Positions 12,847 to 61,752 of a stretch of 64,000 nucleotides of DNA are shown piece by piece. Source of the DNA: Paraspadella gotoi (lineage: Eukaryota; Animalia; Chaetognatha); assembly GCA_051294375.1 (NCBI GenBank), contig CM119265.1:27610874-27674873 (forward strand). The letters run 5' to 3'. Below the pieces are notes generated by a model. It was not told where the DNA came from and searched no databases. It worked only from the letters and a program-made list of their open reading frames with translations. Made by a program: the position numbers and the translations under genes. Within the stretch, counting starts at the first letter, position 1. Every line of letters starts with the position of its first letter.

Positions 12847-12887
<41 letters not shown>

Positions 12888-15800: not shown

Positions 15801-16422
15801 TCACTACGCCTTAAGGTATGATAGTGTATCAGTACCTATCTACTTATAATTATGGCAGTGATTTTGATTGGGTATTCTTCAACATTGAAATTGAACTATA
15901 AATAACTATTAATTCTTTTTTCCCACTGATAAAATAAGAAAACTTTCTTTATTTAAAAAACGGTTGGCATTAGTTATCTTCTCCTTATAACATGGATCTC
16001 ACTGTGAGATGTTTCTAATGTTTTCAAAATACGAACTCAACTTTCTTCACGTTAATTCATCCAATTACGTGATAACCTTTATAAATAAAGAAATAAAACC
16101 GAATTTATCATTGGTAAGAAAACTTTTAAGATAAATGCTCGTAAACCTTGTCGCGTTTTAGATATACTAACTAGACCGTAGGCAAAAAATCGGCACGCTA
16201 TATTATTAAACTTTGTTTTTGTTTTCCACTGCTTTTCTTGTTTTCTTTCTTTCTTAAACTTTCGCTCTGACTCTCTTTTTCTCTTTCTCTCTGTGTGAAG
16301 TATTTTGATTCTTCACGCCAACATAATAAGCGTTAAATTTTATTTTATTTCGTCATAGTCACTCCTATCCTACAACTATTCTCACCCTCAATACTATCCA
16401 TAACTCAATTCTTTGGTGGACG

Positions 16423-16465
<43 letters not shown>
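11025..16465. repeat. Three tandem ~1.8-kb units, each ending in a (CT)n tract
   Basis: Units at ~11025-12883, 12884-14670 and 14671-16465 differ mainly by 1-nt indels. An inverted partial copy lies at ~18290-18900. Confidence 0.9.
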
Positions 16466-38874: not shown

Positions 38875-41800
38875 AGCTGGACAGACGCTGCAGAGCCGGA
38901 ACTCGTTTTTAGACAAATCAGAAGAAGCAGTGACGGAGAAAAAGAGAGAGAGAGAGAGCGACATATATTTAAAAGAAAGAGAGAGAGAGAGCGACATATA
39001 ATTAAAACGTTTTTGTTTTGTAAATAAAACATAAACAAATACGAATATTGATATGAAACATGAGAATTTTAAAGATCTTGATCTTAGAAGCCATATATGA
39101 AATTTAAACTCCCTATGATATCACAAGTTCAGAAGCCATGATTGCAAAAAAGCGTGACCGAAAGCTAAACCGAATCAAAATCTTGCCAGGACGGGCTTTG
39201 CCCGCCGGGCTCGATAATAGAGGATATTTGTTTGTTTTGATAAAATGTAAACAAAACATTTAATAACTGTCCTGACTCAATTTTAAGGACATCGATGATG
39301 ACAAGCTGAATATAAATTATAATTAATTATTAAAATTAATTAATTAATTAATCTATTAATTAATTAATTAATCTATTAATTAATTAATTATCGTAGGCAG
39401 ATCCGACATTGTTTGCTCAAACTTGTTTAAAAATTATTTAGCTCTGATTTAATTTTTTAACCGAGAAATATGGCGTTTAAAAAATGTGTTAGAGAAAATT
39501 GAAGCTCTTCGAATTGAAAAAAGAAAGAAGATGAATAAACTTGGAATAGCGTTGATTATCTTTCATCTATGCGATTTAGGTTAGCGAAAACATATTTGAT
39601 AAGATATCTAACTCGATATATAGTGTATATAGAATTATAGATAGTTTGCTAAATTGAAATATAGATTATAAAAAAGTGTGCCTCTAAAAGAAGGTTATCG
39701 TGTGCAGCTTGGAAAATTATTGAATGAGGAAGATGTGTCTTATGAACAATTGACTGAATGACTCGTTGAAAAATGAATAATTATTGAAACGAATGAATGA
39801 ATGAATGAATAGTTATTATAAAAAAAGTAACTTAAAAACCATCGTAAAGCGACGGACGTTATGTCCCCATTTGTACCTACAATGTTTCGATGTAAAGTTT
39901 TAAGAAAACCATTTTCGTTTTTAATTTGTTTCATTTTAGTATTTATTAAACTTCATTATTTTGTTTCATTTTTAACAAGGACTCGCCTTCTTGTTGTTAA
40001 GTCGTTTGAATGCTTTTGGCTCAAGACTCGATTACAGAATGGTAAAGATACGAATTTGAATATTAGCGATAGATTTATGCTCCTTATTATAAACTTATCA
40101 TTTAAAATACTGATATGATCATCTTAAAAAACTTTTTTAATGTTGTTTTTAAGTGCGGTGGTTACGACGCCTTAACGGACGGTGTTTGGAGATCCAGTAA
40201 GTTTTTTATGTGTAATGGCAGCATCGTCATTTATGACATATTTAACATATTTGGCATACTTAACTACTGATATTTCAACTGATATTTAAAAGACAGCTTC
40301 CCGAGAATAGCCAATGTTAACTGACTAGTATTATTGGTTTTAGTATAGAGCCACGCCCAACTCAGGGAATAGACAAAAATTGAAAAAAGAGAGCCTAATT
40401 TGTTGGAAACTAGTTATTAGTCAAAAATGCTAATATAACAAATAGAACGATACCCTTTTTCGTACAATTTGTAAAAGAAAATAGAAAATATTAATAAATT
40501 TAAAAAACAAGATCAGTTCATCCAATGTGTTGCGCCGCAGTGACTTTATTTTCACGTTTATTTTCCTTTGATCACACCAGATGACATGACATGACATGAC
40601 ATGACATGACATGACTAAAAACCTTTCTTAGCCCATTATTTATGACATGCACTGCATCGAAATTCCGTCTTTTATTCCTTATAGATTTAGGATTTCTTGA
40701 AGCTGGCGCTAGCTGTCCCCTAGATTTGAGGTTTTTTCCTGTCTGCATTTTTAACGTAAGTAGGACAGACTGATGAACAGACATACCGACTGACGGACCG
40801 ACAGACCGACCGACCGTAACTAAAAACTTTCTGGCTTCTTTCCAAAAGAGCTCCGTTTCAGAATTCAGAATTAAGTTTGTTTTTAGGTTTAATAATTAGG
40901 TAAGAGGTTATGGATTAGGTTTTTGATTACGGTTAACCGTTATGGATTAGTTTTCGGATTACTGTTAACCGTTAAGGATTTGAGTTTTAAGTTTTGAGAT
41001 TCAAGTTAAGAGAAGGTTAATGAATAATGATTAAAGTCAAGGGATTAGTTTAGGGATTGGGAATAAGGGTGAGAGATTGGAATATACCATGATGGAAAAA
41101 AAAGTGTCGCGGTTTGGAAAACCCAGTTAATTTTATTGTCAAATATATTTTTGGCTAATAAATAAGTTTTAATAGGTAATCTGACCTCCCTAAGACTGAA
41201 TAATATAATAATTTCTCAACAGTATTAAATTATTCAATGCATTCAAATACTTCCATAAGAGGTTGTCTCTAACTGTTTTCACTTCTTTTTGATTAAGAGA
41301 ACTACTCATATTATTATTATAATTATATCTCTGACATGATATTTTTTATCAGATTTGGGGTAAAAAATGGTCCTTAGCAAGCAGTGAAAAAGATTGATTC
41401 TTTATAAAGTAAACCAGGCTTAAGTTATTGTTGCATAATGTGATAATTCATTATCTTTCACTTCAACAAAATCTTTATTTTTTTATTTTTGGACTTGTTT
41501 AACACTTGATTCTGATAATATATTCAAAGGTAAATAAAAATAATAACTTTGCTTACAGAAAGGTTACCCGGAACCTTTATTGATTTAACCTTTAACTTTT
41601 ATTGATACTTTACAATTTAAAAATAATATTCTGTAATATCTACAGCATCAATGTATTTTTAATATTGCTCATTTTTTGATATATAAATTAAGATTTATGC
41701 CTGAATCTATCCTAATGGAGATAATGCAATAACCATTTGACATAAGACTGAGAAAAGGCAGGGATTTTTAATTATATTGATTAAACTCACAAAGTAATAA

Positions 41801-42487
41801 GGATAAGGCGCTACGTGGGCTGAAGATGACTGTCCGTAACATTTCTAACCCCCTCCAGCAGCCATGGAACGGGTCCCTGGGCTTGGAACCAGGCTTGAGG
41901 GTTTGCCATGCCCCCAAAGCGGCTTACGGCCGTCCTCACGCTTCCCGCAGGGTAGGTACCGGGTTGGGATTGAACCCGGTACCTAGTGGTCATGAGCTGA
42001 TGGCTTTACTCAATGAGCCACCGGGTCACAACTGAAAGTGTCATGATTCTAGGCGGGGTGAACCTAGGCAATGCCCGACTACATGCCCCCCAGATTGTAA
42101 CCCACCTTGCACTGCTTCCAGTGGAGGGAGGGGAGCAATCTTCAGCTAGACCAAGGGCCTGGAATCAGAAGGTTGGAATACGCTCGACAGGATGGGCTTA
42201 CCAGTGTGGATAAGGCGCTACGTGGGCTGAAGATTACTGTCCGTAACTTCTATAACCCCCTCTAGCAGCCATGGAATGGGTCCCTGGGCTTGGAACCAGG
42301 CTTGAGGGTTTGCCATGCCCCCAAGGCAGCTTACGGCCGTCCTCACGCTTCCCGCAGGGTAGGTACCGGTTGGGATTGAACCGGTACCTGTGGTCATGAG
42401 CTGATGGCTTTACTCAATGAGCCACCGTGTCACAACTGAATGTGTCATGATTCTAGGCGGGGTGAACCTAGGCAATGCCCGACTACA
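41801..42487 (-). mobile_element. Family 1 tRNA(Met-like)-headed element, 407-bp head-to-tail repeat (1.7 units), with twister-like ribozyme
   Basis: 72-nt tRNA-like block at 42027-41956 (A box TGGCTCATTGAG, CAT loop, B box GGTTCAATCCC) followed by CCTGG-TTCCAAGC-CCAGG...GAGGG. Confidence 0.8.
41805..41896 (-). ncRNA. Twister-like ribozyme, P3-permuted; second copy at ~42212-42303
   Basis: P3 aag/ctt, P4 cctgg/ccagg with loop ttccaagc, P2 gctr/tagc, GA + T1 ggg:tcc, P1 ggtt(a)gaa/ttcagcc, T2 gc:gc. L1 is CACG rather than the canonical UAA. Confidence 0.6.
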
Positions 42488-43480
42488 AATGAGTATAATA
42501 AAAAGTATAGATATGAAAAAGATAAAAATGAAGAAAGCATTTTTTTGGACAATGCAATTTTTTTTACATAAAACTGTATTTTTTGTCATACCTAAATGAA
42601 ACACAGCTCATATGAATCACAAAAGGACAAAGTTTCTTGATATTTAAATTTTATTTTTCGATTATTACATTAAAATGCCGAAAAATAACTGGAAAGTAAC
42701 CGCGACACTTTTTTTTCCATCATGGTACTTTGGGAAAAAGATTAGAACTACAGGGAGGTCCAGCTCTTTAGGGACTAAATTAAAAAAATTGTTTGGATGG
42801 GTAAAAAATAAGAATAATGGTATAAAAATTGGTAAAAAAATTGGTAAAAAATTGTCTTGACTAAATAATCTATTAAACAAATTTGTCATTGGCAACCCTG
42901 ACCTTCTCCGAGTGTCCAGAGAAGGCGGCACATGCTTTTGCGGCCTCACCAGTTAAAAATGCGGTTATTTCTGCCACTATTGCCGCTATAAAAGAATCGA
43001 GAGTTCTGGAGAGGATGCGTGAGTCAACCTGCTTCTCTATCCTACATTTTCATTAATCGAAGGGATCGCAGTCAGAAAGTCAGAAAGTCAGAAAGTCATC
43101 ATCCTTCATCTTGATTTTCGTCAAAATTTCCCCAAATTTTTGTAAATGAACGCCCGCGAAAAAATATGACATGTTATGCCAAAATCGTAAATTCCAGGGG
43201 ATGCTGTTTTATTTTCCAGACATTTTTGATAAAAATGAAGAGAGTAATTAGCCTAATTTTCAAATTTAGTCTCGCTTTTCTTCTATCATAAACCGTTTCT
43301 GTGCAGTAAGCACTTGAAGTTAGTCCCAAAAGAGCTGGATCTCCATGGAGATATCGGGGTTTAACTTTAGTTGAGGAAGAGGAATCGTAATAGAGCGCTC
43401 TCGGAAAATAGTACCTAACTTTCAATTAAAACTTATATTAATTAAAACTTTAATTTATATTAAATCGTCTCCGTTCACAG

Positions 43481-43590
43481 GGCCACGGGACAGATATCAC
43501 CCGAAATGCACTTGCTCCGAACGAATGAAAAATGGATACCCTTTCTTCTCACTCGATTTGGGAACGCCTCACGAAGTAGAAAGTGTCGAA
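43481..43590 (+). CDS. F-type-lectin-like gene B exon PRDRYHPKCTCSERMKNGYPFFSLDLGTPHEVESVE (copy 1)
   Basis: cacag|...|gtaagc, 110 nt. Matches FTP CTHT.....PWW.VDLG....V..V. Confidence 0.85.
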
Positions 43591-43773
43591 GTAAGCTGCT
43601 TGGTTTTGATTGCTTTGCTTTTTAAAGGGACTGCTTATATTGAACGGTTCTGTCACTAACACATAACAATAATTACTGTCTCTTCATCTCAAATGATTAA
43701 TTTGGATTATTAAACGCTTGTTAATCATTATTTTAGCAATAATTTTTTTGGATTCTTATCGTTGACGTTGAAG

Positions 43774-43838
<65 letters not shown>

Positions 43839-44033
43839 TTTTTCTCTTCCTCATGTATAATGATATGTCTGACTTTGTAACAGAGTAATTAGTGGGTCAT
43901 TTCAATCTCATTTACATATTGTAGTAGTTTAGCTCATTTCTCAATTATTTTGATACGTACGCTTTTCATAGAAGTCTTAATTTGATTATTTTAGCAATAA
44001 TTTAAATGGAGTTTGATAATAAATCTTTTTTAG

Positions 44034-44106
44034 GTTTTTCCTATTCTTCATCAACCGTATCTTCCAAAGAGGATGGACTATCTCATATTTCCCTTTAAAA
44101 TTACAG
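44034..44106 (+). CDS. Gene B exon VFPILHQPYLPKRMDYLIFPFKIT (copy 1)
   Basis: ttttag|...|gtgact, 73 nt, paralogous to 28715-28781. Confidence 0.8.
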
Positions 44107-45443
44107 GTGACTTCACTTTAGAGGTGCAGGGGGCCAATAGGGTGTTTCACCCAAATTTGAAAAGTTTTCAGATCTTGCGCCGCCAGTGACTTTATTTTCA
44201 CGTTTATTTTCCTTTGATCACACCAGATGACATGACATGACATGACATGACATGACATGACATGACTAAAAACCTTTCTTAGCCCATTATTTATGACATG
44301 CACTGCATCGAAATTCCGTCTTTTATTCCTTATAGATTTAGGATTTCTTGAAGCTGCGCTAGCTGTCCCCTAGATTTGAGGTTTTTTCCTGTCTGCATTT
44401 TTAACGTAAGTAGGACAGACTGATGAACAGACATACCGACTGACGGACCGACAGACCGACCGACCGTAACTAAAAACTTTCTGGCTTCTTTCCAAAAGAG
44501 CTCCGTTTCAGAATTCAGAATTAAGTTTGTTTTTAGGTTTAATAATTAGGTAAGAGGTTATGGATTAGGTTTTTGATTACGGTTAACCGTTATGGATTAG
44601 TTTTCGGATTACTGTTAACCGTTAAGGATTTGAGTTTTAAGTTTTGAGATTCAAGTTAAGAGAAGGTTAATGAATAATGATTAAAGTCAAGGGATTAGTT
44701 TAGGGATTGGGAATAAGGGTGAGAGATTGGAATATACCATGATGGAAAAAAAAGTGTCGCGGTTTGGAAAACCAGTTAATTTTATTGTCAAATATATTTT
44801 TGGCTAATAAATAAGTTTTAATAGGTAATCTGACCTCCCTAAGACTGAATAATATAATAATTTCTCAACAGTATTAAATTATTCAATGCATTCAAATACT
44901 TCCATAAGAGGTTGTCTCTAACTGTTTTCACTTCTTTTTGATTAAGAGAACTACTCATATTATTATTATAATTATATCTCTGACATGATATTTTTTATCA
45001 GATTTGGGTAAAAAATGGTCCTTAGCAAGCAGTGAAAAAGATTGATTCTTTATAAAGTAAACCAGGCTTAAGTTATTGTTGCATAATGTGATAATTCATT
45101 ATCTTTCACTTCAACAAAATCTTTATTTTTTTATTTTTGGACTTGTTTAACACTTGATTCTGATAATATATTCAAGGTAATAAAATAATAACTTTGCTTA
45201 CAGAAAGGTTACCCGGAACCTTTATTGATTTAACTTTAACTTTTATTGATACTTTACAATTTAAAAATAATATTCTGTAATATCTACAGCATCAATGTAT
45301 TTTTAATATTGCTCATTTTTTGATATATAAATTAAGATTTATGCCTGAATCTATCCTAATGGAGATAATGCAATAACCATTTGACATAAGACTGAGAAAA
45401 GGCAGGATTTTTAATTATATTGATTAAACTCACAAAGTAATAA

Positions 45444-46132
45444 GGATAAGGCGCTACGTGGGCTGAAGATGACTGTCCGTAACATTTCTAACCCCCTCTA
45501 GCAGCCATGGAACGGGTCCTGGGCTTGGAACCAGGCTTGAGGGTTTGCCATGCCCCCAAAGCGGCTTACGGCCGTCCTCACGCTTCCCGCAGGGTAGGTA
45601 CCGGGTTGGGATTGAACCCGGTACCTAGTGGTCATGAGCTGATGGCTTTACTCAATGAGCCACCGGGTCACAACTGAAAGTGTCATGATTCTAGGCGGGG
45701 TGAACCTAGGCAATGCCCGACTACATGCCCCCCAGATTGTAACCCACCTTGCACTGCTTCCAGTGGAGGGAGGGAGCAATCTTCAGCTAGACCAAGGGCC
45801 TGGAATCAGAAGGTTGGAATACGCTCGACAGGATGGGCTTACCAGTGTGGATAAGGCGCTACGTGGGCTGAAGATTACTGTCCGTAACTTCTATTAACCC
45901 CCTCTAGCAGCCATGGAATGGGTCCCTGGGCTTGGAACCAGGCTTGAGGGTTTGCCATGCCCCCAAGGCAGCTTACGGCCGTCCTCACGCTTCCCGCAGG
46001 GTAGGTACCGGGTTGGGATTGAACCTGGTACCTTGTGGTCATGAGCTGATGGCTTTACTCAATGAGCCACCGTGTCACAACTGAATGTGTCATGATTCTA
46101 GGCGGGGTGAACCTAGGCAATGCCCGACTACA
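45444..46132 (-). mobile_element. Family 1 tRNA/twister-like tandem element (duplicate of 41801-42487)
   Basis: Part of the 3.64-kb duplication. Confidence 0.8.
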
Positions 46133-47122
46133 AATGAGTATAATAAAAAGTATAGATATGAAAAAGATAAAAATGAAGAAAGCATTTTTTTGGACAATGC
46201 AATTTTTTTTACATAAAACTGTATTTTTTGTCATACCTAAATGAAACACAGCTCATATGAATCACAAAAGGACAAAGTTTCTTGATATTTAAATTTTATT
46301 TTTCGATTATTACATTAAAATGCCGAAAAATAACTGGAAAGTAACCGCGACACTTTTTTTTCCATCATGGTACTTGGAAAAAGATTAGAACTACAGGGAG
46401 GTCCAGCTCTTTAGGGACTAAATTAAAAAATTGTTTGGATGGGTAAAAAATAGAATAATGGTATAAAAATTGGTAAAAAATTGGTTAAAAAATTGTCTTG
46501 ACTAAATAATCTATTAAACAAATTTGTCATTGGCAACCCTGACCTTCTCCGAGTGTCCAGAGAAGGCGGCACATGCTTTTGCGGCCTCACCAGTTAAAAA
46601 TGCGGTTATTTCTGCCACTATTGCCGCTATAAAAGAATCGAGAGTTCTGGAGAGGATGCGTGAGTCAACCTGCTTCTCTATCCTACATTTTCATTAATCG
46701 AAGGGATCGCAGTCAGAAAGTCAGAAAGTCAGAAAGTCATCATCCTTCATCTTGATTTTCGTCAAAATTTCCCCAAATTTTTGTAAATGAACGCCCGCGA
46801 AAAAATATGACATGTTATGCCAAAATCGTAAATTCCAGGGGATGCTGTTTTATTTTCCAGACATTTTTGATAAAAATGAAGAGAGTAATTAGCCTAATTT
46901 TCAAATTTAGTCTCGCTTTTCTTCTATCATAAACCGTTTCTGTGCAGTAAGCACTTGAAGTTAGTCCCAAAAGAGCTGGATCTCCATGGAGATATCGGGG
47001 TTTTAACTTTAGTTGAGGAAGAGGAATCGTAATAGAGCGCTCTCGGAAAATAGTACCTAACTTTCAATTAAAACTTATATTAATTAAAACTTTAATTTAT
47101 ATTAAATCGTCTCCGTTCACAG

Positions 47123-47232
47123 GGCCACGGGACAGATATCACCCGAAATGCACTTGCTCCGAACGAATGAAAAATGGATACCCTTTCTTCTCACTCGATT
47201 TGGGAACGCCTCACGAAGTAGAAAGTGTCGAA
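47123..47232 (+). CDS. Gene B exon PRDRYHPKCTCS...VESVE (copy 2)
   Basis: Identical to 43481-43590. Confidence 0.85.
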
Positions 47233-47411
47233 GTAAGCTGCTTGGTTTTGATTGCTTTGCTTTTTAAAGGACTGCTTATATTGAACGGTTCTGTCACTAA
47301 CACATAACAATAATTACTGTCTCTTCATCTCAAATGATTAATTTGGATTATTAAACGCTTGTTAATCATTATTTTAGCAATAATTTTTTTGGATTCTTAT
47401 CGTTGACGTTG

Positions 47412-47464
<53 letters not shown>

Positions 47465-47659
47465 TTTTTCTCTTCCTCATGTATAATGATATGTCTGACT
47501 TTGTAACAGAGTAATTAGTGGGTCATTTCAATCTCATTTACATATTGTAGTAGTTTAGCTCATTTCTCAATTATTTTGATACGTACGCTTTTCATAGAAG
47601 TCTTAATTTGATTATTTTAGCAATAATTTAAATGGAGTTTGATAATAAATCTTTTTTAG

Positions 47660-47732
47660 GTTTTTCCTATTCTTCATCAACCGTATCTTCCAAAGAGGAT
47701 GGACTATCTCATATTTCCCTTTAAAATTACAG
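47660..47732 (+). CDS. Gene B exon VFPILHQPYLPKRMDYLIFPFKIT (copy 2)
   Basis: Identical to 44034-44106. Confidence 0.8.
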
Positions 47733-47762
47733 GTGACTTCACTTTAGAGGTGCAGGGCCAAT

Positions 47763-50010
47763 AGGGTGTTTCACCCAAATTTGAAAAGTTTTCAGATCTT
47801 AATTTACATCAAGGAAAATATGTTGGGAGGTAAAAAAATAAGATTGTACTACTTTTTGTCAAAATTGGCGCAACACCCTTAGTGCTACCCTCGCCTAAAG
47901 ATAAAAAAGCACACCTTGGGCACATTTTCGTCAATTGACTGAAACCTAATGATCCAATCCACGTCCAAAGGATCTTATTAGTTGCCCAACCTTCTAAGGA
48001 TAATGCAGTAAAAATTTCAGCTCTCTATCATGACGAAGGCTCACACTACAGCAGTTACTGTGTGATGGAGTATAGAGAACAATAAGCTTTAAACATTTAA
48101 ACTCAAAACAAAATCATTTCTCTTCAGATCTAATATTTTTTTATATAATATCATACTAGTAGGAGCCAAGTATCTTATTTTTTGAAAGTATGCCCACATC
48201 CTGGTGGATACTTCCTGTACAAACACTAAAAATATAAATCACTACTGTATATCATTTTTTCAACAGTTTTTTAAATCTACAGTGTTAATTGTGACATACT
48301 AATTAGTAGTCGTCTTGCAACAGTGCAATAGACCCTTAAAATTTTCATGGAGTTGCACTTAAATGCAACTGCAGCAGCTTTTTGACCATTTTCTTTAATT
48401 TTATGAAAAACTAATGATGCTATTTTACCCTAACTGATCTCAATACTTGTACAATGTCCATGTTTTCAATATTAATCTTGTATAAATATTAAATATATAT
48501 CATGTCTTCGGACCTTTCTACAGCAATCACAATATGCTGGAGAAAGATTAGTGATTTTTGTTTTTAGTGTTTTGTACAGGAAGTATCCACCAGGATGTGG
48601 GCACACCTTTTAAAAAATAGGACACTTGGCTCCTACTAGTATGATATTATATAAAAAAAAATTAGATCTGAAGAGAAATGATTTTATTTTGAGTTTAAAT
48701 GTTTAAAGCCTATTGTTCTCTATACTCCACCATACAGTAACTGCTGTAGTGTAANNNNNNNNNNNNNNNNNNNNNNNNNAATTTACATCAAGGAAAATAT
48801 GTTGGGAGGTAAAAAAAATAAGATTGTACTACTTTTTGTAAAATTGGCGCAACACCCTTAGTGCTACCCTCGCTAAAGGATAAAAAGCACACCTCTGGGC
48901 ACATTTTCGTCAATTGACTGAAACCTTATGATCCAATCACGTCAAAGGATCTATATAGTTGCCGCAAGCCTTCTAAGGATAATGCAAGTAAAGATTTATC
49001 AGCTCTCTATCATGACGAAGGCTCACACTACAGCAGTTACGTGTTGTATGGAGTATAGAGACAATAAGCTTTAAACATTTAAACTCAAAACAAAATCATT
49101 TCTCTTCAGATCTATATATTTTTTTATATAATATCATACTAGTAGGAGCCAAGTATCTTATTTTTTGAAAGGTTATGCCCACATCCTGGTGGATACTTCC
49201 TGTACAAACACTTAAAAATATAATCACTACTGTATATTCATTTTTTCAACATTTTTTAAATCTTACAGTGTTAATTGTGACATACTAATTATGAGTCGTC
49301 TTGCAACAGTGCAATAGACCCTTAAAATTTTCATGGAGTTGCACTTAAATGCAACTGCAGCAGCTTTTTGACCATTTTCTTTAATTTTATGAAAAACTAA
49401 TGATGCTATTTTACCCTAACTGATCTCAATACTTTGTACAATGTCCATGTTTTCAATATTAATCTTGTATAAATATTAAATATATATCATGTCTTCGGAC
49501 TTTCTACAGCAATCACAATATGCTGGAGAAAGATTAGTGATTTTTGTTTTTAGTGTTTTGTACAGGAAGTATCCACCAGGATGTGGGCACACTTTTAAAA
49601 AATAGGACACTTGGCTCCTACTAGTATGATATTATATAAAAAAAATTAGATCTGAAGAGAAAATGATTTTATTTTGAGTTTAAATGTTTAAAGCCTATTG
49701 TTCTCTATACTCCACCATACAGTAACTGCTGTAGTGTAAGCCTTTGTCATTATAGAAAGCTGAAATTTTTACTGCATCAACTGGGACAACTAATAAGATC
49801 CTTTGGACGTGGATTGGCTCATGAGGAGGTATTCAGTCAATTGACAAAATGTGCCCAAGGTGTGCTTTTTTATCCTTTAGGCGAGGGTAGCACTAAGGGT
49901 GTTGCACAATTTTGACAAAAAGTAGTACAATCTTATTTTTTACCTCCCAACGTATTTTCCTAGATGTAAATTAAGATGTGAAAACTTTTCAAATTTGAGT
50001 GAAACACCCT
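47763..50010. mobile_element. Mutator-like foldback element with ~470-bp TIRs; ~1.3 kb once the gap overlap is removed
   Basis: Ends AGGGTGTTTCAC...GTGAAACACCCT. The 11-bp TSD AGGGGGCCAAT is intact at 44128-44138 and 50011-50021. Confidence 0.75.
48755..48779. other. Scaffold gap (25 N) with ~950 bp repeated on both sides
   Basis: 47801-48754 is repeated at 48780-49739. Confidence 0.95.
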
Positions 50011-53000
50011 AGGGGGCCAATAGGAGGTTGAGTGAAATGTCATTCGCGTAAACTTAAACAATTAAGAATTAATGTGTGTGTTGTAAGGCATTATGAAGAC
50101 AAAAGGGAAAGAGAGTTTGCAATTAGTTTAACTTATGAGTGGAGAACAATCTGGGATACAATTATGCACTTTGATACATCTATGTCATGCGCCAGGTAGG
50201 TTTAAATTTTTGGACAGCATATTTGGATTGCGCATTTGTAGTAATAGTTGGTGTTATTTGTGAGCTTTGTGGTGTTGCAGCACGTGAGCGATGGCATATT
50301 TTGACTTAGTATGAAGTGGTTCTAAAAACTCTGGGAGAAGTTGAGAGTTAAAATTCATTAAATTTAAAATTTGATGATAAGAGAGTGGATGACCGAGAAA
50401 TGTGCTTAGGTTTAACAGGACAAGGGGCTAGGGTATGGTTAAGAAATAAACTAGGTTTTACATTAAGATCTGTTTATATTCAGGATGAGAGCAGAGAGGA
50501 TTAGGCATGTTGAGTCGGCGGTTGAAAATATTTGTGGAAAATATTTGTGATTTATTTGAGAAAGGATTTAGAACAAGATTATTGGGTTGGCAAATTAAGT
50601 GGCAGATTGAGAAGTTTCGTTTGCACATAATACGTTTTTAACTAGCGGTAGCCGACCAAATTCAAATTTTAATGGGAACAGCATTAAAACTAATCCATTA
50701 TTGGTATTAATTATTGTTGTTAAAATATTTTTTTGCAAAAATGTTCCGAACCATGAGTAATTCGCTAATTAATATTATTATATTGCTATATAATGTCAAA
50801 AATTTTGATGTTTTATTACTAAAAATTAGTAAAAACTGCTAAATTCATCGGATGATGATGATGATGATGATTTTTTAAGGTTTTTTTCAATTTAAACCCA
50901 CTTATCATCAAAATATTGGGAAAAGAATTATACTTTGTGTAGATAACTTTTCATAAGCTATTTGAATCTGCTTTAAAAAAAAAATTCAAAAAAAAAATTT
51001 TTGACATTTTCTATCTATAAATAAATATTAAAAAAATAATTACTAATGCTTCTTGCCATTTTAGAAAATTTTGCTCCATTGAAAGTTTTCTCAGAAATGT
51101 ATGAAGTTTCATTTGGAAAGGTTCCCAAATCAAACTTCTGACCCACCCCATTGACGAAGTTTGGCTCTATTTTTAACGTTTTTAGAACGTTTATTTTTGT
51201 TTTCTTTTGTTTTTACCTTTTAGAAAGGTAAGTTGTTTTGTTTCACATATTGCATTTCAGCATTTTTCTGACGTTTATTTCCTTTTATTGGGGATGAGCA
51301 TCGTTTCTAAACTATTGAGTATTTTAAATAAACTTGGTACCGATCGATAGGAAATTTAAAATACTATCTATATGCAAAATTTCATAAAATCGGATAATCC
51401 GTTCAAAAGTTATGGCAATAAAACAGTCGCAAAATCGCGCTTCAAATCGATCAACTTTCGCTTAAAATCGAACTCGTTTTGATCCAATAAGGATTTGAAC
51501 TACCGTAGTACTAAGCTTTAAACCGATAATAGTGATTATGCGCGAACCGGGCCTCATAAAGAGAAAATAGAATAAGCAAAGCCCGGAAAAAAGGGAATCC
51601 TTCACAAATAAATCACAAAAATAATATAATTATAACAATAAAAAAGGAAAAAGACAAGAGAGCCAAAGAAGTAAAAATTGAAAGTATATTGACTGATCTC
51701 ACCAGCAAAACTACTATTAAACTAACTCAATTTAATATCGTTAATTCAAGATTGAGAATTCACTATCGTCACTTCACGATTAATTTTTCATTTTTGAATC
51801 ATTTTAATTTTATGATAACTGATTTTAATATGATAGCAATAAAACTATAATTAAAAGATAATGATTGATAATGGTAAGTAAATTGATGCAATGAATGAAA
51901 TTAATTAAACTAATGATGATGACGATAGTTTAATATCTAAAATTTGTCATATCTGAATCCGGATTTGACTACGATAATTTAGCGGTAATCAGCTAAAAAT
52001 TATGCAAGTTGAAAAAGGTATGCAAGTTGAAAAAGGTATGCCAGTTGAAAAAAGTATGCAAGTTGAAAAAAGTATGCAAGTTAAAAAAAGTATGCAAGTT
52101 GAAAAAAGTATGCAGTTGAAAAAAGTATGCAAGGTTGAAAAAGTATGCAATTGAAAAAGTATGCATACTTTGAAAAAAGTATGCATACTTTGAAGAAAAA
52201 AGTATGCATACTTTGAAAAAGTATGCATACTTTGAAAAAAGTATGCATACTTTGAAAAAAGTATGCATACTTTGAAAAGAGTATGCATACTTCAAAAAAG
52301 TAGGCATACTTCAAAAAAGTAGGCATTTGGAAAGGTTCCCAAATCAAACTTCTGACCCACCCCATTGACAAAGTTGGCTCTATTTTAACGTTTTTAGAAC
52401 GTTTATTTTTGTTTTCTTTTGTTTTTACCTTTTAGAAAGGTAAGTTGTTTTGTTTCACATATTGCATTTCAGCATTTTTCTGACGTTTATTTCCTTTTAT
52501 TGGGATGAGCATCGTTTCTAAACTATTGAGTATTTTTAAAATAAACTTGGTACCGATCGATAGGAAATTTAAAATACTATCTATATACAAAATTTCATAA
52601 AAATCGGATAATCCGTTCAAAAGTTATGGCAATAAAACAGTCGCGAAAATCGCGCTTCAAATCGATCAACTTTCGCTTAAAATCGAACTCGTTTTGATCC
52701 AATAGGATTTGAACTACCGTAGTACTAAGCTTTAAACCGATAATAGTGATTATGCGCGAACCGGGCCTCATAAGAGAAAATAGAATAAGCAAAGCCCGGA
52801 AAAAAAGGAATCCTTACAAAATAAATCACAAAAATAATATAATTATAAAAGAATAAAAAAGGAAAAAGACAAGAGAGCCAAAGAAGTAATAAATTGAAGT
52901 ATATTGACTGATCTCACCAGCAAAACTACAAAGTATGCATACTTTGAAAAAGTATGCATACTTTGAAAAAAGTATGCATACTTTGAAAAAGTACGCATAC

Positions 53001-56000
53001 TTTTGAAAAAAGTATGCATACTTTGAAAAAAGTATGCATACTTTGAAAAAAGTATGCATACTGTTTTTCAAACTTGCAATACTTTTTTCAACTTGCATAC
53101 TTTGAAAAAAGTATGCATACTTTGAAAAAAGTATGCATACTTTGAAAAAAGTATGCATACTTCAAAAAAGTAGGCATACTTTAAAAAAAGTAGGCATACT
53201 TTGAAAAAAGTAGGCATACTTGAAAAAATAGTATGCACTATGCAGGTTAGAAAAAGTATGCAATTTTGAAAAAGTATGCATACTTTAAAAAAGTATCTTG
53301 TAGAGAAGACAATAAGCTATCCGAATCCGTATTGATATGTATGATTTGTCAATTTTTTTTTTCTTTCTCTCTCTCTCTCTTTGTTAACTTTCTTCTCTTT
53401 ATTAATCAATTTCCTCGTCATTCAGCGTATTTCATAAAGAGATAAGATAAAGAGACTTACAAGGGACAAATGACGCTCGAACGCCAATATCACGGCGTGA
53501 AATTCAAAACACAGACACGCGTTCTAAAACGTAAAAATACGGTATAAGCCCTGTTGAAATATGGTATTTATCTGGCCCGGATCGCGCATGATCAATGCTT
53601 ATTTTTAATTGATGTCCTTATTGGAATAACCTACGTCAACCATTTTCAATACAGACCGGAACGCGCGCTAAAAAAGCTTTTAGCATGCGAAACTTGATAT
53701 CTTTCTATTTCTCTAAATTTAATATAAATACTCTCTAAATTTACCCGCCGCGCTCTACCTGAAACAGATAGTAAAAAACAATACAGTTTCTTTCGATGGT
53801 CTTAGAACAAAAAAAATTGAAGGCTTGACTATGCAGTTTTCACCTAAAAACCAGTTCATTTGATTGCTTTATCAAGCAATTGAGATTGCAAGATTTTTAA
53901 TTTTTTCTTTTTTTTATCTTGTAGAGAAGACCATAAGCTATCCGAAACCGTACTGATATGTATGATTTGTTCTAATTTACAAAAGATCTTGCAGGTTTTT
54001 TGGGAAAAAGGGAAAAAAAAGGCCTGACCAGTTCATTTAATCCCATTTTGGGCATGATAAAATGGGAATTTCGATCGCGCTCTACCTCCGTTGGCTTCCC
54101 AAGACGCCAAGCTTTCGAAATCTACCCATATTGATATAAATTATATGGGCCTTGACTATGCAGTTTTGAATATGAAGTGAAAATATTAAGGAATCTTGAT
54201 CGGAACTTCGATTCGAACGACGCGCAGCACTTTTATACATGACGTTTCTGTTTTTATTGTTTTTAACGTTTCAATCTTTTGACGTTCTTAAACGTTTTTC
54301 TTTTAATTTTTACTGACCTTAAAAAACTACTCATTAAATACTGTATATTATAAAGCCTTTGTCATTATAGAAAGCTGAAATTTTTACTGCATCAACTGGG
54401 ACAACTAATAAGATCCTTTGGACGTGGATTGGCTCATGAGGATTCAGTCAATTGACGAAAATGTGCCCAAGGTGTGCTTTTTTATCCTTTAGGCGAGGGT
54501 AGCACTAAGGGTGTTGCACCAATTTTGACAAAAAGTAGTACAATCTTATTTTTTTACCTCCCAACGTATTTTCCTAGATGTAAATTAAGATGTGAAAACT
54601 TTTCAAATTTGAGTGAAACACCCTAGGGGGCCAATAGGAGGTTGAGTGAAATGTCATTCGCGTAAACTTAAACAATTAAGAATTAATGTGTGTGTTGTAA
54701 GGCATTATGAAGACAAAAGGGAAAGAGAGTTTGCAATTAGTTTAACTTATGAGTGGAGAACAATCTGGGATACAATTATGCACTTTGATACATCTATGTC
54801 ATGCGCCAGGTAGGTTTAAATTTTTGGACAGCATATTTGGATTGCGCATTTGTAGTAATAGTTGGTGTTATTTGTGAGCTTTGTGGTGTTGCAGCACGTG
54901 AGCGATGGCATATTTTGACTTAGTATGAAGTGGTTCTAAAACTCTGGGAGAAGTTGAGAGTTAAAATTCATTAAAATTTAAAATTTGATGATAAGAGAGT
55001 GGATGACCGAGAAATGTGCTTAGGTTTAACAGGACAAGGGGCTAGGGTATGGTTAAGAAATAAACTAGGTTTTACATTAAGATCTGTTATATTCAGGATG
55101 AGAGCAGAGAGGATTAGGCATGTTGAGTCGGCGGTTGAAAATATTTGTGGAAAATATTTGTGATTTATTTGAGAAAGGATTTAGAACAAGATTATTGGGT
55201 TGCCAAATTAAGTGGCAGATTGAGAAGTTTCGTTTGCACATAATACGTTTTTAACTAGCGGTAGCCGACCAAATTCAAATTTTAATGGGAACAGCATTAA
55301 ACTAATCCATTATTGGTATTAATTATTGTGTTAAAATATTTTTTTGCAAAAATGTTCCGAACCATGAGTAATTCGCTAATTAATATTATTATATTGCTAT
55401 ATAATGTCAAAAATTTTGATGTTTTATTACTAAAAATTAGTAAAAACTGCTAAATTCATCGGATGATGATGATGATGATGATTTTTTAAGGTTTTTTTCA
55501 ATTTAAACCCACTTATCATCAAAATATTGGAAAAAGAATTATACTTTGTGTAGATAACTTTTCATAAGCTATTTGAATCTGCTTTAAAAAAAAAATTCAA
55601 AAAAAAAATTTTTGACATTTCCTATCTATAAATAAATATTAAAAAAATAATTACTAATGCTTCTTGCCATTTTAGAAAATTTTGCTCCATTGAAAGTTTT
55701 CTCAGAAATGTATGAAGTTTCATTTGGAAAGGTTCCCAAATCAAACTTCTGACCCACCCCATTGACGAAGTTTGGCTCTATTTTAACGTTTTTAGAACGT
55801 TTATTTTTGTTTTCTTTTGTTTTTACCTTTTAGAAAGGTAAGTTGTTTTGTTTCACATATTGCATTTCAGCATTTTTCTGACGTTTATTTCCTTTTATTG
55901 GGGATGAGCATCGTTTCTAACTATTGAGTAATAATACTTGGTACCGATCGGATAGGAAATTTAAAATACTATCTATATGCAAAATTTCAAAAAAATCGGA

Positions 56001-58945
56001 TAATCCGTTCAAAAGTTATGGCAATAAAACAGTCGCGAAAATCGCGCTTCAAATCGATCAACTTTCGCTTAAAATCGAACTCGTTTTGATCCAATAAGGA
56101 TTTGAACTACCGTAGTACTAAGCTTTAAACCGATAATAGTGATTATGCGCGAACCGGGCCTCATAAGAGAAAATAGAATAAGCAAAGCCCGGAAAAAAGG
56201 GAATCCTTACAAAATAAATCACAAAAATAATATAATTATAACAATAAAAAAGGAAAAAGACAAGAGAGCCAAAGAAGTAATAAATTGAAAGTATATTGAC
56301 TGATCTCACCAGCAAAACTACTATTAAACTAACTCAATTTAATATCGTTAATTCAAGATTGAGAATTCACTATCGTCACTTCACGATTAATTTTTCATTT
56401 TTGAATCATTTTAATTTTATGATAACTGATTTTAATATGATAGCAATAAAACTATAATTAAAAGATAATGATTGATAATGGTAAGTAAATTGATGCAATG
56501 AATGAAATTAATTAAACTAATGATGATGACGATAGTTTAATATCTAAAATTTGTCATATCTGAATCCGGATTTGACTACGATAATTTAGCGGTAATCAGC
56601 TAAAAATTATGCAAGTTGAAAAAGGTATGCAAGTTGAAAAAGGTATGCAAGTTGAAAAAAGTATGCAAGTTGAAAAAATATGCAAGTTAAAAAAAGTATG
56701 CAAGTTGAAAAAAGTATGCAAGTTGAAAAAAGTATGCAAGTTGAAAAAAGTATGCAAACAAGTTGAAAAAAATATGCATACTTTGAAAAAAGTATGCATA
56801 CTTTAAAAAAAAAGTATGCATACTTTGAAAAAAGTATGCATACTTTTGAAAAAAGTATGCATACTTTGAAAAGAGTATGCATACTTCAAAAAAGTAGGCA
56901 TACTTCAAAAAAAGTAGGCATTTGGAAAGGTTCCCAAATCAAACTTCTGACCCACCCATTGACAAAGTTTGGCTCTATTTTAACTTTTTAGAACGTTTAT
57001 TTTTGTTTTCTTTTGTTTTTACCTTTTAGAAAGGTAAGTTGTTTTGTTTCACATATTGCATTTCAGCATTTTTCTGACGTTTATTTCCTTTTATTGGGGA
57101 TGAGCATCGTTTCTAAACTATTGAGTATTTTTAAATAAACTTGGTACCGATCGATAGGAAATTTAAAATACTATCTATATACAAAATTTCATAAAAATCG
57201 GATAATCCGTTCAAAAGTTATGGCAATAAAACAGTCGCGAAAATCGCGCTTCAAATCGATCAACTTTCGCTTAAAATCGAACTCGTTTTGATCCAATAAG
57301 GATTTGAACTACCGTAGTACTAAGCTTTAAACCGATAATAGTGATTATGCGCGAACCGGGCCTCATAAGAGAAAATAGAATAAGCAAAGCCCGGAAAAAA
57401 AGGAATCCTTACAAAATAAATCCAAAAAATAATATAATTATAAAAGAATAAAAAAGGAAAAAGACAAGAGAGCCAAAGAAGTAATAAATTGAAAGTATAT
57501 TGACTGATCTCACCAGCAAAACTACAAAGTATGCATACTTTGAAAAAAGTATGCATACTTTGAAAAAAGTATGCATACTTTGAAAAAGTACGCATACTTT
57601 GAAAAAAGTATGCATACTTTGAAAAAAGTATGCATACTTTGAAAAAAGTATGCATACTTTTTCAACTTGCATACTTTTTTCAACTTGCATACTTTGAAAA
57701 AAGTATGCATACTTTGAAAAAAGTATGCATACTTTGAAAAAAGTATGCATACTTCAAAAAAGTAGGCATACTTTAAAAAAAGTAGGCATACTTTGAAAAA
57801 AGTAGGCATACTTGGAAAAATAGTATGCACTATGCAGGTTAGAAAAAGTATGCAATTTTGAAAAAAGTATGCATACTTTAAAAAAGTATCTTGTAGAGAA
57901 GACAATAAGCTATCCGAATCCGTATTGATATGTATGATTTGTCAATTTTTTTTTTCTTCTCTCTCTCTCTCTTGTTAAACTTTCTTCTCTTTTAAATCAA
58001 TTTCCTCGTCATTCAGCGTATTTTCATAAAGAGATAAGATAAAGAGACTTACAAGGGACAAATGACGCCTCGAACGCCAATATCACGGCGTGAAATTCAA
58101 AACACAGACCGCGTTCTAAAACGTAAAAATACGGTAAAGCCATGTTGAAATATGGTATTTATCTGGCCCGGATCGCGCATGATCAATGCTTATTTTTAAT
58201 TGATGTCCTTATTGGATAACCTACGTCAACCATTTTCAATACAGACCGGAACGCGCTTAAAAAAGCTTTTAGCATGCGAAAACTTGATATCCTTTCTATT
58301 TGCTCTAAATTTAATATAAACTCTCTAAATTTACCCCCGCGCTCTACCTGAAACAGATAGTAAAAACAATACAGTTTCTTTCGATGGTCTTAGAACAAAA
58401 AAAATTGAAGGCTTGACTATGCAGTTTTCACCTAAAAAACCAGTTCATTTGATTGCTTTATCAAGCAATTGAGATTGCAAGATTTTTAATTTTTCTTTTT
58501 TTTATCTTGTAGAGAAGACCATAAGCTATCCGAAACCGTACTGATATGTATGATTTGTTCTAATTTACAAAAGATCTTGCAGGTTTTTTGGGAAAAGGGA
58601 AAAAACGGCCTGACCAGTTCATTTAAATCCCATTTTTGGGCATGATAAAATGGGAATTTCGATCGCGCTCTACCTCCGTTGGCTTCCCAAGACGCCAAGC
58701 TTTCGAAATCTACCCATATTGATATAATTTATATGGGCCTTGACTATGCAGTTTTGAATAGAAGTAAAGATATTAAGGAATCTTGATCGGAACTTCGATT
58801 CGAACGACGCGCAGCCCTACTTTTATACATGACGTTTCTGTTTTTATTGTTTTTAACGTTTCAATCTTTTGACGTTCTTAAACGTTTTTCTTTTAATTTG
58901 TTACTGACCTTTAAAAACTACTTCATTAAATACTGTATATTATAA
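49738..58945. repeat. Near-identical 4.6-kb tandem duplication (49738-54352 / 54353-58945), each unit with two internal ~600-bp repeats
   Basis: Continuous identity apart from small indels. Confidence 0.93.
52000..53300. repeat. 18-20-bp minisatellites (aaaaaagtatgcaagttg; aaaaaagtatgcatactttg); duplicate at 56608-57890
   Basis: Direct tandem arrays. The unit contains the perfect palindrome AAAGTATGCATACTTT. Confidence 0.95.
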
Positions 58946-59126
58946 ATATTACTTTTACAGTATTTAATGAAGTAGTTTTTAACATTTTAGTAATGTTATA
59001 AGTGTTGATGTTAGTGTATTACATCTTTATCAGTGTAGTTTTTATTTGTTTACTGTGTTCCAGTCTTTTTACGCAGTTGTTGATACCATTACTGTTTTTG
59101 TATTCAATATAATAAATAAATAATTG

Positions 59127-59358
59127 AAAAGACAATAATTATTTTTATGAGTTAGTGACAGAACCGTTCAATATAAGCAGTCCCTGAGCTTCGGACCAGG
59201 GTGTAACACCGTGTTACAGGCGGGTTAAGCGCCCCGTCCCTCTTATCTGCTAGGCGACCACCGGGCTAGAACCCCAGACCTTTGGGTTGGGAGGCGAATG
59301 ACTTGCCTCCGGCACCAATGGCCGCTGATGAACGGTTGGTGGATTTTAGTCCACCATA
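59127..59358 (-). mobile_element. Family 2 tRNA(Gly-like)-containing element with twister-like ribozyme
   Basis: 72-nt tRNA-like block at 59325-59254 (acceptor stem gcggcca/tggtcgc, CCC loop, B box GGTTCTAGCCC). Second copy at 60110-60342, fragments at ~43627-43680 and ~47267-47322. Confidence 0.8.
59176..59251 (-). ncRNA. Twister-like ribozyme, P5-permuted
   Basis: agcag(P5)..agg-GA-cgg-ggcgct-TAA-ccc-GC-c-tgtaacac-g-gtgttaca(P3)-ccctgg-TCCGAAGC-tcaggg(P4)-a-ctgct(P5'). T1 is ccg:cgg. P1 is very short and P2 imperfect. Confidence 0.65.
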
Positions 59359-59543
59359 TAATAAATAAAAAAAGTTAATGCCATTGTTCAAGTCCTTTTG
59401 GGGAAAAAAATTTAAATTAAGTAATTTAGTTATCACCAGTGACTTTGTTATAAATTAACTCCAGTTTATTTCAAAGATTTTAGCAGCATTGATTGTTATG
59501 ACACCATCGGCGCCAAAGGGAAAAAAATTATTTTATTTTTCAG

Positions 59544-59611
59544 TTGGTAACAGAAGAAATGGTGAAAATCTATTATGTGACTACACAGAAAGCAAGAGCT
59601 TTGATTACAGA
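59544..59611 (+). CDS. Gene B exon VGNRRNGENLLCDYTESKSFDYR
   Basis: tttcag|...|gtaagt, 68 nt. Differences from gene A in the first half are mostly synonymous. Confidence 0.88.
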
Positions 59612-59925
59612 GTAAGTCAAACATAATAAAGAGCGAGATCATTTTCATGGTTAGAAATCGATACGCATGCAAGCATCGCAGATGGAATCGGATCGGCGAC
59701 TCGGATAAAATCTATCGAGGACTTTCTGATTGGATGAATCATCATCGAAACGGACCAATGAGTAGAAAACGAGCCCGTGTCGATGATCCGATTGTATTGT
59801 ATTGTATTGTTTTGTATTATACCTGACCATTTTGAATTAAATGCATCTGTCTCAAATTCTGACACCGTCTTTGTTTGTGACTTTTCTGAGAATAAAATCC
59901 ACTTTGGTTTTAAGTTGAAATCTCT

Positions 59926-60049
59926 GTCCACTTACTTAAAAGTGGTGCTAGTGGTTGGATTCGAACCCACGCCTCCAGAAAGATTGTCTACTTACTTAAA
60001 TGTGGTGGCAGTGGTGAGATTCGAACCCACGCCTCGAGAGAGACTGGTG
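59926..60049 (-). pseudogene. Two tandem tRNA-Leu 3' halves ending in CCA (60-bp period)
   Basis: Minus strand ccagtctctctcgaggcgtgggttcgaatctcaccactgcca-CCA: variable arm, T arm and acceptor strand of tRNA-Leu, with no 5' half. Confidence 0.8.
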
Positions 60050-60109
60050 TTCTATTCTTAATTATCGTTATTTTTTAGTTTAGTAGTACTCGTGGAGAAA
60101 CTCACTTCT

Positions 60110-60342
60110 GAAAAGACAGTAATAATTATTATGTGTTAGTGACAGAACAGTTCAATGGAAGCAGTCCCTGAGCTTCTGATTAGGCTGTAACACCGTGTTA
60201 CTGGAGGGTTAAGCGCCCCGTCCCTCGTAACTGCCAGGCGGCCACCGGGCTAGAACCCCGGACATTTGGGTTGGGAGGCGAATGACTTGCCTCCGGCACC
60301 AATAGCCGCTGATGAACGGTTGGTGGATTTTAGTCCACCATA
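60110..60342 (-). mobile_element. Family 2 tRNA/twister-like element, more decayed copy
   Basis: Aligns end to end with 59127-59358. Confidence 0.8.
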
Positions 60343-60525: not shown

Positions 60526-61752
60526 AACAAGTTTGAACAAACAATGTCGGATCTGTCCACGATCATTAGCGGTAATTAATTAATTTTTTAATACAAATTA
60601 TATAAACTAAAAAAAATTAATAAATTAATTAATTTGATCCGAAATGTTTGTTTTTAGGTCTTTTGATCACTGACTGTGGATAAGTCGCTAAATTGGTTGA
60701 AGAAGATTATCCGTAACTTCTTCACCCCCTCTAGCAGATATGGAACGGGTCCTCGGCTTGGAACCAGGCTTGAGGGTTTTCCACGCCCCCAAAACGGCTT
60801 ACGGCCGTCCTCGCACTTCCCGCAGGGTAGGTACCGGGTTGTGATTGAACCCGGTACCTAATGGTCATGAGCTGATGGCTTTACTCAATGAGCCACCGGG
60901 TCACGACTGAAGGTTTTATGCTTAGAGGCGGGGTGAACTTTGCTATGCCCAACTACATGACCATGACAAAAGCAAAAGAAATGACAATGATGGCGACGAC
61001 GACAATAATGATTGACTTAATTGATTGATTGATTGATTAAATAATTAATTAATTTATAAATAAATTGATTGATTGAATAATTAATTTATAAATAACTATA
61101 TAAATTTATTCATTGAATAATTGATTAATTGACCGATTAGTTAATTGTTTATTAATTAATTGACTAATTGATTAATTAACTGATTAATTATTTGATTAAT
61201 TAATACATCTTGCATTTATATTTAATATAAAAAGAAAAAGAAGCATGATCAATTAGTGAAACAGGTTTTTTGTTTTCTTCCATTTAAACTCATTTTCACT
61301 CAGATGATTTCATCGAAACTTGATTTCCAGCTTAATCATACACTTTCCTACCCACATACAAAATTTCAAGTCACTCGCCCCGTTCACTCATAAGTAATTG
61401 ACGTTCAAATAGTGAAATATATTTTTTTGTTTTTTCCATTTAAACTCATTTCCACTTAAACGATTCCATCGAAACTTCCTATCCAGCTCAATCACACACA
61501 TCCCTACCCACACACAAAATTTCATTCCAATCCATCCATCTAATCACGAGCAATCAGAGTTTTTTGCTAAGGTGGGACGGACCGAAAGACGGAGACGGAT
61601 GTCCTGACGGATATCATTTTTTTTGCATAACTTAACATAATTCGATGTTCTGACATGATATAAGTGAATGCCCGACAAGATTGAGGGGGCGGACCGACGG
61701 ACCGACAAAGTTAATTATAGAGTTGGGATCTGCTAATAAGCAGATCCGACCA
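60526..61752 (-). mobile_element. Full-length DINE-1/HINE-like element with a nested family 1 copy
   Basis: Minus-strand 5' gtcggatctgc-ttatta-gcagatcc and 3' cagatccgac-attgtttgttcaaacttgtt. Confidence 0.7.
60675..60959 (-). mobile_element. Family 1 tRNA/twister-like element, monomeric diverged copy
   Basis: Aligns with 41801-42084 with nearly the same boundaries. Confidence 0.8.

Follow-up and report, generated by a model that had tools for sequence, protein, structure and literature searches.

Twister ribozymes are common in genomes, and few of them have been assigned a job. LTR retrozymes have, to our knowledge, been described only in plants, where the ribozymes are hammerheads. For these plant elements, Cervera et al. 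(2016) proposed a route of monomer release, circularisation and Gypsy-driven reverse transcription (PMC4918200). The Helenus (TRIMp3) elements of Kojima (2024) are TRIMs that carry a tRNA-derived piece in their LTRs and are flanked in animals by 4-bp duplications (PMC10886601). The available text of that paper makes no statement about ribozymes, and no LTR in its supplement matches the twister P4/L4 word. In part 7 of the supplement a T4 run follows the tRNA block in 22 of 25 LTRs, as counted by eye. Two wasp sequences of the same supplement, Helenus-2_SyJa-LTR and Helenus-2_SyUm-LTR, have no such run after the tRNA block and, also judged by eye, contain a full type III hammerhead core with complementary loops at that place. 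These gall-wasp hammerhead Helenus LTRs would be animal LTR retrozymes.

The window, that is the whole stretch of 64,000 nucleotides of Paraspadella gotoi DNA that was analysed, contains a gene-less miniature LTR retrotransposon that is very probably a TRIM of the Helenus type (Table 1). Two minus-strand copies of about 283 bp (42487-42205 and 42083-41801), which are 95.4% identical, enclose an internal part, so that the full piece of 687 bp is laid out as LTR (283 bp), internal part (121 bp) and LTR (283 bp). Every copy begins with TG, and CA ends every copy where that end is intact; at the 3' junction of the element, which is damaged, three LTR bases have been lost. As in Helenus, there are two TG...CA LTRs around a short non-coding middle, a tRNA-like block in each LTR, a PBS-like TGG after the 5' LTR, a PPT-like tract of six G before the 3' LTR, and solo LTRs, and the total length is below 1 kb, within the limit of about 1.3 kb for such elements (PMC10886601). 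The target duplication is of 4 bp, where Helenus has 4 bp (in animals) or 5 bp, and was found clean in one of the two independent insertions, namely the solo LTR only. Unlike Helenus, the element has a structured stretch of about 155 nt with a twister fold after its tRNA block, no T4 run, and an A-box without the usual YGG (PMC10886601). Within the internal part (42084-42204), the PBS-like start is predicted to pair with the 3' part just before the G-tract, and this pairing forms a long stem in the circular fold.

The initial annotation overlooked the TG...CA termini, the PBS-like and G-tract motifs, the 4-bp target duplication and an upstream twister domain with a canonical UAA. It had described the locus as a head-to-tail tandem array and had placed it among the non-LTR tandem retrozymes. 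Only 1.7 units are present at the locus, which are the two LTRs around the 121-bp internal part, and the class assigned was wrong: the element is an LTR-type TRIM. The unit of 407 nt was correctly recognised, the spacing of the two copies being 407 nt when measured at the ribozyme and 404 nt when measured at the 5' end. Independent insertions had been said to end about 15-20 nt from the cut. They do end 18-19 nt past the cut predicted in that annotation because the CA end of the LTR (42205) sits there; position 42205 is the LTR end and not a processing site.

Table 1. Features of the element, its ribozyme-like domains and its copies in the window (positions are those of the whole stretch).
Feature	Position	Strand	Basis or remark
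5' LTR, 283 bp, TG start, CA end	42205..42487	-	sequence; contigs of other copies enter unrelated flanks exactly at 42205 and 42487
3' LTR, final three bases missing	41801..42083	-	sequence comparison
Internal part, 121 bp, non-coding	42084..42204	-	no Pfam match in the element frames tested
PBS-like start of internal part, TGG one base after LTR	42190..42203	-	sequence; layout as in the Helenus PBS figure
PPT-like six-G tract, two bases before 3' LTR	42086..42091	-	sequence
tRNA-derived block	42360..42431	-	D-arm kept, A-box-like 42424-42413, CAT loop, B-box 42382-42374; acceptor and anticodon stems degenerate
P5-order twister candidate with P3 hairpin	42283..42347	-	Rfam Twister-P5, 17-18 bits, and pattern match
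P5-order parts: P2 strand; GA-GGA; palindromic P1	42347-45; 42344-40; 42339-34	-	
P5-order parts: UAA; predicted cut; P2 strand; GC	42333-31; 42333/42332; 42330-28; 42327-26	-	
P5-order parts: P3; P4/L4	42325-18/42308-01; 42300-42283	-	
8-nt self-complementary stretch replacing the P1 stem-loop	42333..42340	-	possible dimer contact (inferred)
P5-order twister of the 3' LTR	41940-41876; predicted cut 41926/41925	-	
P3-order look-alike: second L1/P1/P2 domain sharing P4/L4	42212..42303	-	cut would be 42224/42223
Second whole-element copy	45444..46132	-	inside a 3.65-kb tandem segmental duplication, 98.7% identity, shared flanks
Solo LTR, about 87% identical	60675..60957	-	GTCA target duplication at 60961-58 and 60674-71; twister broken, one-base loss at L4/P4

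Five LTR copies could be compared in the window, namely two pairs and the solo LTR. The second 687-bp piece (46132-45444) has the same flanks as the first and therefore counts as one insertion with it; by its sequence context, this pair is not an independent insertion but one insertion that was duplicated. In public contigs of the same organism, 5787 from run X1 and 2234 from run X4 aligned to the unit. Contigs run into unrelated flanks at 42205 (65 in X1, 40 in X4, 20 in X9 and 54 in X5) and at 42487 (93 in X1 and 49 in X4), with a flank agreement of about 0.4 beyond both LTR ends (loose contig ends). The element is thus present in many copies with sharp termini at both LTR ends. The LTR had a greater summed contig depth than the internal part. 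Numerous solo LTRs would account for this, yet contig depth is no measure of copy number. That run X9 consists of RNA is a guess, and it carries no information on expression. The contigs of runs X11 and X12, from other organisms of the study that includes X9, gave 0 matches to the element, which is no proof of absence.

The surrounding DNA is AT-rich (window GC 0.32) and has many simple repeats. Pfam models found nothing above cut-off in 73 open frames (71 of the 77 listed, the duplicates in segmental copies being left out, and two more). Tandem duplications on the kilobase scale lie at 40530-47800 (98.7%), 49738-58946 (97.4%), 47801-49739 (96%, across an N gap) and 11258-16462 (86%); most of the differences within the youngest of the duplications in the window lie in homopolymers, and these duplications may be assembly artefacts. 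Satellite arrays of 18-20 bp around an ATGCAT palindrome occupy 51995-53296 and 56602-57889. The region 59125-60342 holds repeats with tRNA-like B-box words, a 60-bp tandem unit (59925-60043) and a 234-bp duplication, and is probably another SINE-like family.

The tRNA-derived block begins 56 bp into the LTR, leaving 55 bp upstream of it, and its TRGCY and GGTTC words, which correspond to the A and B boxes of Helenus LTRs, are 42-43 nt apart. It had been called tRNA-Met-like. The D-arm, the A-box-like and B-box words and a CAT loop of anticodon type are present; the label Met depends on that CAT, and ARAGORN detected 0 tRNA genes in the window and none at the block. We infer from its sequence that the block is an internal Pol III promoter. 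A tRNA-derived promoter of Pol III type, presumed active, and a twister-type fold do share one mobile unit, as the initial annotation had proposed. No T4 run occurs in the element, an absence without significance since 50% of shuffled sequences also lacked one. In predicted folds of 42350-42465, the anticodon region is taken up by pairing with the part of the LTR upstream of the block, and the T-arm is lengthened to an 11-bp hairpin, so that the tRNA fold is replaced.

Each LTR carries two L1/P2 domains flanking one shared P4/L4. The initial annotation read the P4/L4 with the downstream domain, in P3 order; the reading with the upstream domain, in P5 order, appears to be the better one. Across the whole window Rfam gave 0 matches at the gathering threshold. 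At a relaxed cut-off the best structured match in the element was Twister-P5 (RF02684) on the upstream reading, with 17.3-18.2 bits, well below the gathering score of 37.6; Twister-P1 and Twister-P3 were absent from the rows listed for the element up to an E of 10, with a single overlapping clan match omitted, and the solo LTR had no twister row. An Rfam comparison, which the initial annotation had suggested as a check, thus pointed to a domain other than the one it described. General acid A1, A2, the general base G, the trans A-A pair and the L4 consensus are all present in four of the five LTR copies. The P5-order pseudoknots T1 and T2 are likewise fully Watson-Crick in 4/5 copies, T2 being broken in the solo LTR. 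P4 has 5 bp, and P2 has two of three pairs (one G-C and one G-U, with the third position mismatched). In place of a P1 stem-loop there is a loopless 6-nt palindrome, in which one pair is possible in a monomer. The P5 pattern matched four times in the window and 0 times in 100 shuffles; given P4/L4, the upstream module arose in 25 of 20000 shuffles, and in 0 of 20000 when P3 was required to have at least 6 bp. The descriptors and domain borders were set after the sequence had been seen, and the shuffle counts are conditional on P4/L4. Readings of the unit as HDV-like, hammerhead, pistol or twister-sister ribozymes were dropped after comparison by eye with consensus features.

The strand order, GA-GGR, UAA, GC, P4, 8-nt L4 and both pseudoknots are those of RF02684, and a P3 hairpin at the same place is known from phage motifs (L079, L080, L082 and L083). 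The element differs from RF02684 in its loopless palindromic P1, the mismatched third P2 pair, a score of half the threshold and a eukaryotic transposon as host. Of six phage contigs with the 18-nt P4/L4 word, four are P5 twisters with nearly identical GA-GGA, P1 base and UAA words. The phage set for comparison comprised 31 distinct motifs that passed a filter of at least 2 P2, 3 P1 and 3 P4 pairs, with one duplicate reading dropped, and these motifs share the core words by construction. Most of the 31 have a P2 strand of 3 nt, and in five a P3 hairpin separates GC from P4, both as in the element. The GGA/UUCC allele of the pseudoknot is the allele that such phage motifs pair. P2 has all three pairs in 30 of the 31, and P1 has at least 4 bp in every one. 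Six of seven phage motifs tested passed the Rfam threshold, and natural P3-bearing P5 twisters scored 35-47 bits. L079, L080, L082 and L083 are themselves P5-order twisters in which the Rfam P5 model sees the P3 hairpin as an insertion, and L079 falls just below threshold. The 31 phage twisters aligned too poorly in MAFFT to support a covariance model. Of the scans of prokaryote genomes for twisters with a loopless or very short P1, one gave 0 matches and another gave 12, which have no P2/P4 pairing and are chance-like. The 15-nt upstream word had 35 matches in a viral scan, none of them twister-like, and five matches of a pattern scan in metagenomes were all unrelated.

Within the family, the upstream domain varies less than the sequence around it. 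Between 42205 and 42344, variants reaching at least 3% of X1 depth fall on 1 of 53 positions in the upstream domain and on 13 of 87 others (Fisher p=0.017); these shares are depth-weighted contig figures, unphased, from a young family. The sole variant in the upstream domain changes G-U to A-U and keeps the pair. In the P3 hairpin, three variants lie in the 9-nt loop and none in the 16-nt stem, and X10 contigs turn the G-U of this stem into G-C. No two-sided compensatory change was seen among the five copies in the window. Preferential keeping of the upstream domain is therefore supported, and not proven, by these counts.

In energy models the free ensemble is 9.4-13.4 kcal/mol more stable than the twister scaffold; the median of this gap in the phage motifs is 3.2 (0.5-11.6, n=31), pseudoknots not being counted. 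The circular 407-nt unit folds no better than shuffles (z -0.9). The palindrome forms a 6-bp duplex of -10.7 kcal/mol, compared with +4.1 for the one-pair hairpin; two palindromes pairing in place of two such +4.1 hairpins would close much of the folding gap; pairing over 8 bp, in which the cut site would be buried, is an equal risk. High-throughput twister assays showed tolerance of P1 and P2 defects but not of pseudoknot changes, A2 changes or changes immediately following the cut (PMC11662667, PMC5113685, PMC8501958). P1 has been reported as dispensable (PMC5113685, PMC11662667). When positions immediately following the cut were changed, the mean cleaved fraction was 0.19, and changes of A2 came near to loss (PMC11662667). 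This pattern of tolerance favours the upstream site 42333/42332 (41926/41925 in the 3' LTR). On the sequence evidence, we lean modestly towards cleavage at 42333/42332 by this candidate ribozyme.

We propose, with slightly more belief than doubt, that the locus is a gene-less Helenus-type LTR element with a twister, which would work like a plant LTR retrozyme and cleave itself at 42333/42332. Pol III would start at the tRNA block of the 5' LTR and, with no T4 run to stop at, would read through both LTRs. Cuts at both twisters would release a monomer with its PBS about 130 nt from the 5' end; the initial annotation rightly expected an RNA of 407 nt from cuts in two copies. A host ligase would then close the 407-nt monomer to a circle, and a Gypsy-type helper would reverse-transcribe round it from the PBS and integrate the product with a 4-bp duplication. 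Such circle-mediated replication is a tentative part of the proposal, below an even chance in our estimate. If only the 3' copy cuts, then the twister would serve as a terminator and leave an R region of 100 nt. A single copy may cut slowly, given its loopless palindromic P1 and the misfolds predicted for the monomer, and efficient cutting may require the two LTRs of one full transcript to pair with each other. Dimer action is known from amphibian hammerheads that have a one-pair stem and a palindromic tetraloop (PMC7229834, PMC6765202), and by this analogy dimer dependence of cleavage here is conceivable, if unlikely. A stronger version is doubtful taken as a whole: the element would be the first LTR retrozyme to use a twister. 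In this Pol III TRIM the twister would replace the oligo-T terminator, act efficiently only as a dimer through its palindromic P1 and so sense full-length transcripts, and the 407-nt circle would be the template of transposition.

Activity of the P3-order twister, cutting at 42224/42223 either alone or in alternation with the upstream site as a switch with one P4/L4 and two substrate domains, is improbable in our judgement. The P3, P4/L4, P2, GA-GGG, P1 and GC words named in the initial annotation do occur in the order given there, and the downstream module is beyond chance given P4/L4 (0 of 20000 shuffles, with a descriptor fitted afterwards); it has a perfect 4-bp P2, GA-GGG, GC and a 3-bp P3, and in long context it is about as stable as the upstream scaffold. 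Its cleavage strand of L1, however, has 4 nt, and A2 is missing in all five copies, so that no copy has N-A-A at a site where assays tolerate changes poorly. The clean extension of its P1 hairpin, which had been thought to stay paired among copies, is private to the 5' LTR copies: 3 of 8 pairs are broken in the 3' LTR copies and the solo LTR, and in the solo LTR P1 and T2 are broken as well. Position 42235 differs from the present copy in about 98% of contig depth, and another change breaks a P1 pair in 6-7% of depth. An A takes the place of the general base G42262 in 11% (X1) and 8% (X5) of depth, and a P2-breaking change at 42266 reaches the same depth, so that neither the base nor P2 is conserved across the family; in one survey this G-to-A change lowered and did not abolish cleavage (PMC11662667). 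A viral scan for P3-order twisters found 0 with the element's loop, and six other matches were unconvincing. The site preferred in the initial annotation is thus probably the wrong one, since A2 is lacking there and the P5-order domain 109 nt upstream has all catalytic and pseudoknot positions. The P3-order domain is likely not catalytic, and the P5-order and P3-order folds would be mutually exclusive, since one AAG and one L4 serve in each. In sequence the halves are alike and therefore likely arose by partial duplication, the downstream half being most likely a decayed duplicate or a competing fold. A non-LTR tandem retrozyme or a Schistosoma-type ribozyme SINE, made of head-to-tail 407-bp repeats, is more improbable still, to a degree that leaves it little weight. 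Repeats that combine a tRNA-derived promoter with a ribozyme are known for SINE-like elements of Schistosoma, and contigs contain the joint 42484 -> 42081 that an array would give, but this joint equals the internal-to-3'-LTR junction as well. TG...CA, the PBS-like start, the G-tract, a 4-bp duplication at a single 283-bp unit and the 55 bp upstream of the block all fit LTR replication, whereas animal non-LTR retrozymes, in the sources available, are head-to-tail repeats with longer duplications and have none of the LTR, PBS and PPT that have counterparts, with a solo LTR, here.

The most serious rival to an active upstream twister is an ordinary Helenus TRIM whose LTR captured a fragment bearing a twister, for example from a SINE or a Penelope-like repeat, that no longer cuts. 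The captured sequence would then be retained as LTR sequence or for a structural role in packaging or strand transfer, with T-runs in the flanks ending the transcripts. The sub-threshold Rfam score, the weak P2, the lack of a P1 stem-loop, the predicted misfolds and the broken pseudoknot of the solo LTR all agree with such a relic. Helenus families, moreover, transpose without any ribozyme reported in the available text (PMC10886601), and a TRIM needs none. Against a relic, the catalytic and pseudoknot bases are all intact and vary hardly at all in the family while their neighbours do vary, and the defects are of the kinds that assays tolerate. We consider a dead relic somewhat unlikely.

The active upstream twister would place the element close to the plant LTR retrozymes, with which it shares a non-coding body, a ribozyme in each LTR (300-400 bp in the plant elements), PBS, PPT, a 4-bp duplication and solo LTRs (PMC4918200). 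The plant elements have type III hammerheads and RNAs of 600-1000 nt, and their activity and circles have been shown (PMC4918200), whereas here a candidate twister, a putative tRNA-type promoter and a 407-nt unit are read from the sequence. The twister T-variants of Schistosoma Perere-3 are in an autonomous non-LTR element and have a P1-order twister at its 5' end (PMC8501958), and four motif words of the present element had no match in the supplement of that paper. The ribozymes that act as dimers in amphibian and Penelope repeats belong to the hammerhead class, and these repeats are of the non-LTR kind (PMC7229834, PMC6765202). In the literature searched, mostly open-access and in partial text and including PMC10085705, we found no twister in an LTR element or TRIM and no twister acting as a dimer; the element's ribozyme may be among the approximately 1000 new candidates of PMC11662667. 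Helenus elements and LTR retrozymes are each known, and this comparison suggests that a twister together with a tRNA block in an LTR is, as far as found, a new combination.

If the fold is dead, then the element is only a new Helenus family. If the twister is active, it joins Helenus and the retrozymes and gives twisters a testable role in transposition of the LTR type. It would also explain how RNA ends are formed in a Pol III LTR element that has no terminator, and the palindromic, loopless P1 would be the first natural candidate for a twister that acts as a dimer. In the stronger version of the proposal, the element and the hammerhead-bearing Helenus LTRs of wasps would together mark out a branch of Helenus in animals that is processed by ribozymes.
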